From Chrysomallon squamiferum (Eukaryota; Animalia; Mollusca), in NCBI GenBank assembly GCA_012295275.1, contig CM022666.1, positions 15,438,001-15,502,000 of the forward strand: a stretch of DNA of 64,000 nt. The letters run 5' to 3'. Below, one piece after another: positions 6,101 through 12,100 of the stretch. How positions within the stretch are numbered: the first letter of the stretch is position 1; every line of letters starts with the position of its first letter. The translations under genes were made by a program, and so were the position numbers. The notes below the pieces were generated by a model. That model did no database searches. It was given only the letters and a program-made list of their open reading frames with translations, and was not told the origin of the DNA.

Positions 6101-9100
6101 TAATAACTTATCAAATATTTTAATAGCCAAAACCTTTATAACATATGTTAACAGATAAAATTATTAAAATATATATATATATAAAATTATAAAATATTTT
6201 AATAGATAAACTGATTTTGTTATTCTTTAAGGCTACTTAAACATCTGTTTATAAAGATATTTAAAATCTGTAGATTAAAACAGAAATATTGTTACAACAA
6301 CAAACTATTATTTTACACTTCATACTACTTACAGATGTATAGATATTTTTTGGGGTGGGCAGCACTACTGATAAAACTGTTTTAGTATGAAGGAGACAAT
6401 CCTCCTTTAGACAAGGTTCCTCCTCCTGAGGTTTGGAAACTCTCCTACTGAAGTTTGGACACCATTCTGCCATGTTTGGTTGAAACTGAGGCTTAACACA
6501 CTTGAATCATTCTGTGATAGTTACATACCAACATAACAGAAGATTTATTAAACTCCCAAACTACACTTTGCAGAAATGCCCCAGGAAAATTGTGACTTGA
6601 TCTACAGTAGCACAAATGTAAAAAATACCGAAATAAAAATTCATTTACAAGATCTACCAAAACACAGATGTCAAAAAATACCGAAATAAAAATTCATTTA
6701 CAAGAACTACCAAAACACAGATGTCAAAAAATACCATAGAACAGTTCTGAAATCAGTTAAATGGCCTACCAACATACAGACACCAAACACACTGCAGTAA
6801 GTAATGATTATGCAGAATACACCTGTGAAGTGTGTAATGGAGAGCCTGGTTGCTGTCATCCTGCTACACATTAGAAACTACACATTAGAAAACAAAAATC
6901 ACAGAACTGACATTTCACAGACTTAAAAAAAAGAAAAAGAATTAGCATGTGTATTCAACAAGTCTCATGTTAATCTACCAAAAAAAAAAAAACGTTTTGG
7001 ATTTCTTTTTGTTGCTAAAAAAAAATAACAATAATAATAACAACAACATCATTAACAACGGAAATAAAATAGATTTTTATAAACTTTCTTGTCTCTCTGT
7101 CTCTGTGTCAGGGTTTCTATAAATGTATATCTCAGCCATTTATGTTTCTGATAAACTCTTCAATAAAAACACTATTAAACAGTAAAAATAAAAGCTGCAT
7201 AACAACACAGAATAGTAAAAACAAATTCATAAAAGAATATATATATATATTTAAATAATTTTTCACATAACTCTGAAATATAACATAAGAAATAATAATT
7301 ACTGTTCCTGCTTAAATTCAAGATATACAGTATTTATAACTTCTGGTTTTGAATTATGGTATTTTCAGACATTTCATTTCTAAACAAACTTTTATTGAGA
7401 ATGAATATGGTATTAAACCTTCACCCATTCAAAAATACTCACATACCAAATATGATTACAAAAAAAAAAAAAAAAAAAATTAAAAATTAAAAAAAATTAA
7501 AAAATTAAAGCAGTAGGTATCAAGCAGCATAAAACAGGTACCAGACATTTTCTCAGCTTCAACTTATTAATTTTAGAAGTTTATTAATTTGTAACTGTTA
7601 ATACTGAACTTTACTTTTTGTTGTTGACTTTACATTTCAAGTCTGTATTAAACTTTGGCTCAGAAAATGGTAAAATAAAGAAATCCAGGTCATTTTCAGG
7701 TCTGACTTTGTGATTAAATCATCTGGTACCTGTATAAAACAAGTGGGGCAGGCACCATAACTGAAAAAGCTCAGAAAAAAAAAAAAAAAAAAAAAAAATA
7801 ATAATAATAATAATAACAAAATAAATTTAACAATATTTTTGTTTTTTCCATTTTCAAAAAAACTTTTTTTACTGGAAGGCTACATTGAAAGAGAAAATAT
7901 TACAAACCTATTGTTATTTTATATAAACTTTATTAGCAGTGAAAAAACAAACAAAAAATAAAAACAAAAATAAATAAATAAAATAAAAAATATAATAAGT
8001 AAAAAACAAAATAAAAAGAATATGAAAATAATAATTAAATTAAGCACAATAAAATAAAATAATATAAAATAAAATGTTTGTTTAAGAGTCACAGAGTTAA
8101 TGCTTGTGGTGCACATGAAGAATGTTAATTAGAAAAATGTATTCCACTGTTACAGAAAAGCAAATCACCTGTCCACCATTACTTGTAGCAAAAATTCTGT
8201 GTCGCCCCCCACACTGAGTAATATACCATATAAACCAAAGAGTGGACGACTCGTAAGAGTGGGCAGTTACAAAACCCTGGACAAAGAGGTCCATGAATGC
8301 ACGCACTGCTCTACAAATAAACATATGACGAACACTGTTTAATGTACTTATGGCAGTATGTATTATATGGTCTTATTAAAAATTAAAAAAAAATAAATAA
8401 ATAAATAAATAAAAAAATAAAAAATATAAAATATAAAATAAAAATCTTTATATTTACAAGTTATTTGGTACAAGTTATTTGATACAAGTGACCTATCATT
8501 GGTGACAAATTGTTACACAACATAAATGCCGATGTTGGACATCTTCACAGTTGTGGCTGTGGTGTTGACATCTATGCAGCAGACCAACTGCTGTGGGTTT
8601 TTTTTTTCAGTTTACCAATTACATTTGTGTTGTGTTTAGAATTTAAAAGAAAACAAAAAAGAAGTAGAAGAAGAAAAAAATAAATGGAAGAAAATGGTCG
8701 AATGTATCTTCACAACTGCGGTTGTGACATTTTTCAGTTTACCAGTCATATCTGTGCTCTGATTTGAATTTAACTAATTAAGTAAGTAAATAATTTAAAG
8801 ACGTAACTAAGTAAATAAGTAACTAACTAAGTACAGGAATAAATAAATAAACAGGTGATCTATGTCACAAATGTTTATTATGGAATTACTGGTCTACAAA
8901 TTAAAGTAAATATATCTTCATGTAGCAGCATTTATAAATTATTTTAAAACTTTAAAACTTTTTTGAAAATAGATTACTAACTTAAAACAAACGGGAAAAA
9001 AAAAAAAAAAAAAAATGAAAGAAATTAAATAAATAAAATGAAAAAAAAAATAATATATAATAATAATAATATTACATTAAAATAAAATAATAATAAAAAT

Positions 9101-12100
9101 ACCAATAAAAAAATTTAAAAAGGAAAGAAAAAAAAAAATAAAATGATGTGGCAAATGAAGATGTATAAGAAATATGCTCTTCTAAAACAAAAGAAAAAAA
9201 TATATTTTCTGATTTGATTCAAATAAATTCTATCAAGAAACCACTGTGAACACCTCACATAGCACTAATACTCTTTTAAAATTAAACTTTAATTTTACTT
9301 TGAATTCAGTGTTGTGTCTACCATTCAATAACACTAAATCATAAAATACTTTTCTTTTTGTACCCAAGTTTTAAGTGCTAGGATATTTTCAGTAACAACG
9401 TAACAGAAATAACTGTTTTAAAGAAAGAAAAAGGAAACAAACAGATACAAGTCGACAAAAGTGATACACTTTTAAATACACACATGTGTACACACATCTA
9501 AATACACTTATACACATATAAACAGTGTTACAGAATTATAAAAATCTGTAAATTAATAAAATGCCAATGGCTGATGTTCCCATGGTAACTCACTACTATA
9601 ATAATAAAGCTACACCAGCTCAATAAAATACATCGACTGTTTTGTCTGAAGTGTTAATTTTACACATGTACACACACACATTAGTGATCAAATGATTTTT
9701 TTTTCAAAAGATGCCAATAAGAATTCATAAGATTAGCAGCAATAAAATAAGGTCAAAACTGGCATACTAAAAGAAGATATACTAGCACTAATGTATCTAT
9801 ATACAAACAATTTAGAAAAGAAAACAGAAAAGAAGAGGCTGTAGATAAAACGACAATAAAATACTGTATTGAAATATTATTTGCAAAATGTCACATCAGA
9901 TTAGAAACACAGCAAACTTCTGCTGTAAAATCACAAACAGGTTTTAATACCTTTCACGTCATTACTTGATAATTGAAATATAAACACACTGTCACTCTAA
10001 ATGTGGATCCATGGAATTATTATTACTTGATTTATTAAAATAGGCATGCTAAAATATAAGTAAAATTATTTAAAGGATGTGATAAAATGCTAAATGAAAT
10101 AACAGAATAGAAAGTTGTTAAAATGATTAAATAATCCTACAAAAAAAAAAAAAAAAAAAAAAAAAAAAAACAATAGTAAAAACTAAACAAATTTTAAAAT
10201 ATAAATACAAAAATTTTAATTTTTTTTTTTTAGAAATTCCCAAAAAATATAAAAATGACAGTAGGAAACTGTAGTAAAAAAAATGTTTAATATGAACTAA
10301 CAAAATGCTGATGGCCAAAATATAATTTGAAAATTATGACATTTGTTACACAATGCAAATGGTCAAAAACTATCCACCAAAATACAAATGCTGAAAAGTG
10401 TAATATTACAGAATTCATTTTTACGACTTATCAAGATGCAAATGGCAAAAGGTAGCAGTGATTGGTTATTATAGCAAATTAGTGAAGTTATTAATGAATC
10501 AATCACCTGTCCACCATTAGTGATTGCCATAATTCTATTGGAACCGCCACACTGAGACACATACCATAAAAACCAGAGCAGTGAGACTTCGTGAGGTTCA
10601 GAAGTGACATTTACCTCAACAAACATATTCAACATACCTCGTATTATTCTACAAATAAACACACAAAATATAATCTAGCTGATGTTTGCACCTTTTTCTT
10701 TTCTTTTCTTCTTAATTATTTATTTTAGTAATTTTTTCATTTTTTTTTTTTTTTTTAATTAATAATAATAATAATAATAATGACAATAAGAAGAATAAAA
10801 ATAACAACAATGACAATAATAACAACAACAATTATCATAATTTTAAAATGTCTTTCTTTTGTATTCCATTTGACCTTAACTTTTAAAAAATCCCTTCCAT
10901 CTTTGCCATGATTTGCAAAACACAATTTAATGTAAGATTTAACCTTATTTCTGAAAGAAGATGAAAAAAACTATAAGCAATATCAGACAAAATCATAAGA
11001 CAGACAACATTATATTACATTTTTAAATAGATAACTGTTTATAACAAGACAAACAACACAGTGATATAACATCATACAAAATTCACAACATCAAATCAAA
11101 GTATTTAAAGCGTATAAAGTCTGTGACATAATTTTCAGTATTTAAATAGATTAAAAAAAGATAGTGTCACTTCTTTTAGAATTTTTAGTGTGTGTGTGTG
11201 TGTGTGTGTGTGTGTGACATTATCAGTTTAAAGTAATTAATGTCAATATTCTAAATTTCAAAACTGTTATATCCAATATATGACAATTTTAATAAGTCAG
11301 GTATTTTTTTAGCAAATATTATTGATAATTATCATCATTTGAAGGTGATTAAATATTGGGTTTTTAAAAAAAAATATTTTAACTGAAGATCAATTTAGAA
11401 TCATTTCAGTAAATATATGTCAGTGATTTTAAAATTTCATGGTTCTAATTTTTCAAACAAATCTGTATGCATTTTTATTACTATGATCATTACTACTTGA
11501 AGATATTTCTAATACTTATTACCACAATTTGAAAGTTTTTGGACAAGACCATATGAAGCACAAAACAGGTGGAACCACAACAACGACGAGATACAAACAG
11601 TTTCAGATTTTAACCTGTCCTCCATTTGTTGTACCAAAGATTCTCATGGACCCTCCAGCACCCTTAACATACCACAAGAGCCACAACATGGACACTTCAT
11701 AGGGTTCTGAGGTAACGTTAACCTCTATGAACTGTCTACAGAAACTGCTGGCACTTCTGTGTAGCAGCATTAAGAAAATAGCAGGGCACATTATAAAATA
11801 ATTAATTTAAAAAAATTAAAAAAAATAAAAAAAATGAGAGGAGAGAGAAATAAAATCTAAATTGTTGCCAAGTTACTCGTTCAAGAAGATCACACACACA
11901 CACACACACACACACACACACACACACACACACACATATTTGAAGAATGAATAATGTATAAAATCATTCAGAAATCATAGAAGAAAAAAAAAAATGTTTT
12001 TCTTTTAAGTTTTTGTGCAGAGTGAAAACATCAAGAATTTTTTTAACAAATACACGTACATACATCCATCCATCCATCCATCCATCCATCCATCCATCCA

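Follow-up and report, generated by a model that had tools for sequence, protein, structure and literature searches.

Three tandem copies of exon 6 in a mollusc monoamine oxidase gene and their likely bearing on the substrate pocket

Monoamine oxidase (MAO), a major drug target, regulates the levels of serotonin and dopamine; the mollusc enzyme serves work in ecotoxicology and neurodevelopment. The closest described systems are other enzymes with a choice between tandem homologous exons. According to the accessible part of one report, exons 6a and 6e of coq-2 in helminths, annelids and molluscs are mutually exclusive, and the one chosen determines both the form of the enzyme core and which product is made (PMC7434440). 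According to the portions available of two articles, the tandem duplicated exon of ACOX1 had separate origins in chordates, echinoderms and molluscs (PMC8373072, PMC9741552). Here we analyze a MAO gene of Chrysomallon squamiferum located in a window of 64,000 nucleotides (assembly GCA_012295275.1, contig CM022666.1, positions 15,438,001 to 15,502,000; coordinates below count from the first letter of this window), in which coding exon 6 is present in three tandem copies, 6A, 6B and 6C.

The comparison with coq-2, as far as the accessible text goes, rests on homologous internal exons of the same length that are mutually exclusive, present in molluscs and absent in mammals; in contrast, coq-2 encodes a polyprenyltransferase with two such exons, whose function was proven by exon deletion, whereas the MAO gene has three, with a function deduced from sequence. 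ACOX1, according to the two articles on it, is also an oxidase that depends on FAD; its tandem duplicated exon, used in a mutually exclusive way, encodes about 50 residues, and the copies are about 50% identical. The substrate class of ACOX1 is unrelated, however, and its FAD-binding residues are kept between the copies whereas substrate-cavity residues change in MAO. Vertebrate MAOA and MAOB belong to the same family as the present gene and have the same catalytic residues (Lys305, Cys406, Tyr407, Tyr444; MAO-A numbering here and below), and the A/B differences at positions 180/171, 181/172 and 208/199 of the PDB sequences fall within the exon concerned. Unlike the mollusc variants, they are separate genes, and the mollusc variants are not A or B orthologues (none of those described here has Ile208 and all have Phe335). 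Mutually exclusive active-site exons are thus a known device; for MAO no description was found in the literature searched, though the isoforms stand in automatic annotation.

An exon-6 cassette and its transcripts

We consider it highly probable that the three tandem exon-6 copies form a cassette from which 6B and 6C are each spliced alone, 6A likely too, and that which copy is chosen likely alters the shape of the substrate pocket, the enzyme being identical in all other parts. The three copies, proposed in a preliminary description made from the letters alone, are indeed found on the minus strand at the positions given there; each measures 142 nt, is flanked by AG and GT, begins with A, is free of stops in the frame of exon 5 and ends in NGGQ. 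The hand-counted amino-acid identities of that description proved exact (A-B 28/47, B-C 23/47, A-C 21/47); in DNA the copies share 76-89 of 142 positions. They lie next to each other as homologous internal exons that agree in length and phase, as a cassette of this kind demands. Any single copy yields a frame of 472 codons open to the window edge, whereas zero, two or three copies lead to stops at codons 171, 218 and 251, which bears out the proposed frame rule. Likewise, exon 6 alone is duplicated: tblastn with two mollusc MAOs matched it three times and each other exon region at most once. A profile built from 117 distinct exon-6 peptides recovered 6A, 6B and 6C (E values between 1e-27 and 4e-21) and gave neither a fourth copy nor a decayed one in the 64-kb window. 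The 47-residue peptides alone gave zero Pfam matches, and a weak protein search with 6C alone found nothing.

The gene is a single MAO on the minus strand, with 14 coding exon positions from 19471 to the window edge, as follows (RNA runs are described below):

MAO coding exon 1, 19423..19471, minus strand: ATG and start of the FAD-binding GxGxxG motif
MAO exon 2, 14315..14409, minus strand
MAO exon 3, 13801..13938, minus strand: Tyr69 equivalent
MAO exon 4, 13419..13523, minus strand: joined to exon 5 in 4/4 RNA runs (loose ends)
MAO exon 5, 12796..12887, minus strand: common donor for the cassette
Alternative exon 6A, 11615..11756, minus strand: V180/N181/F208; non-consensus donor; conserved; spliced form unseen in four runs
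Alternative exon 6B, 10507..10648, minus strand: V180/N181/M208; joined to exon 5 in 2/4 runs and to exon 7 in one run (listed loose end)
Alternative exon 6C, 8169..8310, minus strand: G180/F181/F208; joined to exons 5 and 7 in 4/4 runs
MAO exon 7, 4942..5005, minus strand: common acceptor for the cassette
MAO exon 8, 3879..3967, minus strand
MAO exon 9, 3209..3368, minus strand: Lys305 equivalent
MAO exon 10, 2552..2648, minus strand: Phe at the Ile335/Tyr326 position, common to all isoforms
MAO exon 11, 2089..2200, minus strand
MAO exon 12, 1460..1557, minus strand: equivalents of Cys406 (FAD link) and Tyr407
MAO exon 13, 568..679, minus strand: Tyr444 equivalent
MAO exon 14, 44..106, minus strand: gene continues past the window edge, with the C-terminal membrane anchor outside the window

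With the FAD motif and the equivalents of Lys305, Cys406, Tyr407 and Tyr444 all found, the predicted product is a flavin MAO of the MAO-A/B family. When exon 6 is left aside, the protein is closest to abalone MAO, at 77% identity; abalone MAO itself matches human MAO at E 1e-200. In a tree the protein falls among gastropods, at a placement that lacks strong support.

RNA from four runs, all of one study, was available as contigs and was placed on positions 8120-12920. Exon 5 is joined to 6C, skipping 6A and 6B, in all four runs, and to 6B in two of them, with canonical ends in both cases. Among the loose ends listed, the start of exon 7 follows 6C in four runs and 6B in one, and several contigs of 188 letters read exon 5, one copy and exon 7. 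Among the joints listed for the contigs of the four runs, none links one variant to another; rare co-inclusion could escape such contigs. The splicing of 6B and 6C as alternatives is near certain, and productive mRNAs appear to contain exactly one copy each. The mutually exclusive use put forward in the preliminary description is thus borne out for 6B and 6C, whereas for 6A, which is likely spliced in as well, no junction was seen in these runs. Contig depths for 6C and 6B were 121 vs. 50 in one run and 26 vs. 20 in another, figures that are not used as expression levels. RNA contigs also cover much intron at low depth over 8120-12920, from unspliced precursor or DNA in the libraries, and one of them appears to carry 6B with the upstream intron retained.

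The earlier proposal of an old duplication under purifying selection is supported: the proportion of synonymous differences (pS, 0.61-0.84) exceeds that of nonsynonymous ones (pN, 0.28-0.40) in all three pairs of copies. Among the 31 letter differences listed from the RNA contigs, four are exonic, of which 6A has three and 6B one; every one of the four is synonymous, while about 22% of sites are synonymous. Since all three single-nucleotide polymorphisms (SNPs) of 6A are synonymous and this copy closely matches an abalone exon (see below), 6A appears to be maintained though its spliced form was unseen, which suggests that it is kept under constraint. The flanking introns, described earlier as not alignable, are so in bulk, but 6B and 6C have an identical acceptor end of 13 nt and the same first six donor bases.

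Residues of the substrate pocket

Copy 6B aligns without gaps to residues 174-215 of human MAO-A, so that the exon spans MAO-A 169-215. In the accessible part of one study, Asn181, Phe208, Val210 and Gln215 of MAO-A touch harmine in the crystal structure, and Ile180 does so in modelling (PMC9571839). Phe208 and Ile335 are named as determinants of MAO selectivity in the portion available of another (PMC10302329, citing Tsugeno and Ito 1997). At positions 180/181/208/210 the variants have V/N/F/T (6A), V/N/M/I (6B) and G/F/F/T (6C). Comparing 12 gene sets, which represent about five independent lineages, reveals that position 208 varies between variants in 11 of them, mostly Phe or Tyr vs. Asn, Gln or His, whereas positions 206, 207, 212, 213 and 215 are invariant between variants. 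The Gly180/Phe181 form of 6C is unique to this gene among the 12 sets. Position 208 is Phe in 88 of 90 named vertebrate rows, these being the best matches to abalone MAO. Lys305, Cys406, Tyr407, Tyr444 and Phe335, on the other hand, sit on the shared exons. With the FAD link and the aromatic cage common to all isoforms and the cavity varying at residues 180, 181, 208 and 210, the isoforms would be expected to differ in amine or inhibitor preference, as one catalytic machine with swappable pocket walls. Of the earlier proposal that this animal obtains MAO variants by exon swapping in one gene, the swapping is supported, and the catalytic difference is read from residue positions only.

A MAO-B type of pocket would have Ile at 199 (equivalent to 208 in MAO-A) and Tyr at 326 (equivalent to 335); the variants do not fit it, since position 208 is Phe, Met and Phe in 6A, 6B and 6C and position 335 is Phe in all of them. 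The Phe335 of exon 10 is also found in abalone; an aromatic residue at 335 together with Phe208, as in 6A and 6C, is a pairing absent from both human enzymes.

Counterparts in other molluscs and history of the copies

The preliminary description understated the reach of the swap, for the cassette is common to abalones and bivalves. Copy 6A matches "isoform X2" of Haliotis rufescens (40/47, or 85% identical, vs. 77% for the rest of the protein). The H. rufescens cluster contains three isoforms of 544 residues (XP_048246548-50) that differ in the exon-6 block only, and a partial H. rubra model also has the third abalone type. Opening the mollusc protein clusters gave ten species with at least two X-numbered isoforms (for the oyster, among the members listed), namely two abalones, four mussels, three scallops and the Pacific oyster. 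In all 12 pairwise isoform comparisons within these species, every difference falls inside the 47-residue exon-6 span. Judged from these protein sequences, the cassette is widely shared among molluscs. No sign of a cassette was seen in sharks, where four of four isoform pairs have one same exon 6, or in Littorina and Pomacea, with two models each and the same exon in both; single models, as in limpets, chiton, cephalopods and several bivalves, are uninformative in this respect. None of the 326 fetched proteins contains two exon-6 stretches. A second MAO gene model is also present in scallops, oysters and Littorina (P0015/P0019, P0016/P0091, P0080/P0338), in several cases sharing a contig or chromosome with the first; exon swapping thus occurs side by side with duplication of the gene.

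These public isoforms of Haliotis, Mytilus, scallop and Pacific oyster thus present the same 47-residue swap, with three variants in H. rufescens and 6A resembling abalone X2. They differ from the present case in that they are automatic X1-X3 models for which no description was found, and 6B and 6C are without a clear counterpart among abalone X1 and X3. The earlier remark that no description was known for MAO is upheld by a full-text literature search, which found none of MAO exon swapping, subscription papers on cloned mollusc MAO, which may hold an earlier mention, being beyond its reach; on the other hand, the isoforms were already present, unremarked, in public predicted annotation. Two surveys of human tandem exons make no mention of MAO in the available main text (PMC8373072, PMC9741552). 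A mussel preprint of 2026 uses residue 208 to type MAOs, and the words "isoform", "splic" and "exon" do not occur in the available main text (10.64898/2026.08.17.745212); public mussel MAO models have Tyr or Asn at 208 depending on the exon.

Mollusc MAOs are typed as A-like or B-like from residue 208. Should the pocket depend on which exon is chosen, the real enzyme would be missed by expression measured per gene and by typing from one sequence. Moreover, the isoforms are natural chimeras, identical outside 47 residues, and offer a direct test of which pocket residues set MAO specificity.

The exon tree was built on 47 columns, with long branches for 6B and 6C and groups named after the tree had been seen; Pomacea was left out, as the locating motif missed it, and one protein was counted as bivalve by its likeness to Mytilus. 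In it 6A pairs with abalone X2 (96/95), within a supported group of ten exons that includes gastropods and bivalves (97/94). The approximately unbiased (AU) test rejects single clades of 6A, 6B and 6C (p 0.003), of the window and abalone copies (p 0.008) and of the bivalve exons (p 0.007). The tree in which 6B and 6C are held together is slightly better than that of the free search, in agreement with their shared splice flanks and their lowest synonymous distance. The likely order is an old split of A from the others, followed by a younger B/C duplication in this lineage. The former split would be older than the separation from the abalones and probably also older than that of gastropods and bivalves.

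Alternative readings and mechanism

Several observations weigh against a pocket-remodelling cassette with three members in use. Copies 6A and 6C both retain Phe208, the second selectivity residue (335) lies on a shared exon, and the cavity residues named above do not include many of the positions that differ (169-176, 198-205). The isoforms of the relatives are predicted models, known here from protein sequences alone, and all ten listed oyster proteins from transcript assemblies have the X1-type exon and none the X2 type. A single clade of the two Mytilus types is compatible with the AU test (p 0.16), and short alignments, long branches and convergence limit what can be said of the history. 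As to the RNA, the shorter side of the joint between exon 5 and 6B comprises just 29 letters, and this joint carries the flag "between: not known"; the four runs gave no spliced junction of 6A, which only intron-running contigs covered, and the support consists of contigs from one study, which drop rare variants, so that the missing 6A is not read as absence.

Part of this evidence would fit isoforms that are mutually exclusive but catalytically nearly equivalent, the swap altering stability or dimer and partner contacts, or one form being barely active. This is unlikely in our view: the differing positions outside the cavity agree with it, as do the Gly180/Phe181 of 6C, seen in no other gene set, and the human tandem-exon events, which mostly keep ligand-binding residues according to the accessible part of PMC9741552, but position 208 switches between aromatic and polar residues or Met in 11 of the 12 sets while being nearly constant as Phe in vertebrates, and the joining of 6C in all four runs fits a working enzyme. 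Quite improbable is a two-way switch in which 6B and 6C alone are in use and 6A is a relic being lost. Such a relic would explain its missing joints and its non-consensus donor, yet 6A is the most conserved copy, its SNPs are all synonymous, the A type is the form found in several abalone and mussel models, and rare variants are lost from contigs. There is next to no chance, finally, that the copies are an assembly echo or collapsed haplotypes or paralogues. Real or apparent duplications do occur elsewhere in the window, together with one gap; however, the copies differ too widely in DNA, with synonymous sites near saturation, no other exon is repeated, the same swap is found in ten other species, and two of the copies are linked in RNA to one and the same pair of flanking exons, 5 and 7, by which an artefact, already discounted in the preliminary description, is refuted for 6B and 6C.

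For the cassette with pocket-changing exons, which we therefore prefer, a mechanism can be outlined. Nonsense-mediated decay removes frame-broken transcripts, and given the frame rule it is a likely backstop here, by which transcripts with zero or two copies would be eliminated. As a working guess, regulated competition between splice sites would pick one exon, with decay behind it, and 6A would be used in tissues or stages outside those sampled. The introns between the copies are 966 and 2196 nt long and of the GT-AG type; hence neither steric exclusion by short introns nor a mismatch between U2 and U12 spliceosomes is supported. Of 935 inverted repeats, the 25 longest consist of simple sequence (microsatellites, A/T runs), and no docking-selector element is claimed. 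Molluscs thus likely tune amine breakdown by exon choice, as far as sequence can tell. More tentatively, and with somewhat less than even confidence, pocket-exon swapping may date from before the gastropod/bivalve split, with a conserved A form acting perhaps on neurotransmitters and fast-changing forms on dietary, microbial or pollutant amines, a parallel by splicing to the MAO-A/MAO-B split of vertebrates.

Other features were noted in the window. Minisatellite-like tandem repeats lie in MAO introns 8 (3554-3891) and 1 (about 14480-15110). About 2 kb are repeated on either side of a gap of 200 N (43572-43771), where 41610-43539 and 43787-45815 are 96% and 85% identical; a tandem repeat or an overlap left by the assembly may account for this. 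Two intact single-ORF (open reading frame) genes of TRIM type, with a RING, two B-boxes and a weak COS, are found on the plus strand at 46434-47651 and 28205-29419; their proteins are 83% identical, and they lie within a duplicated block of 5 kb (27524-32529 vs. 45767-50769) that is 93% identical.

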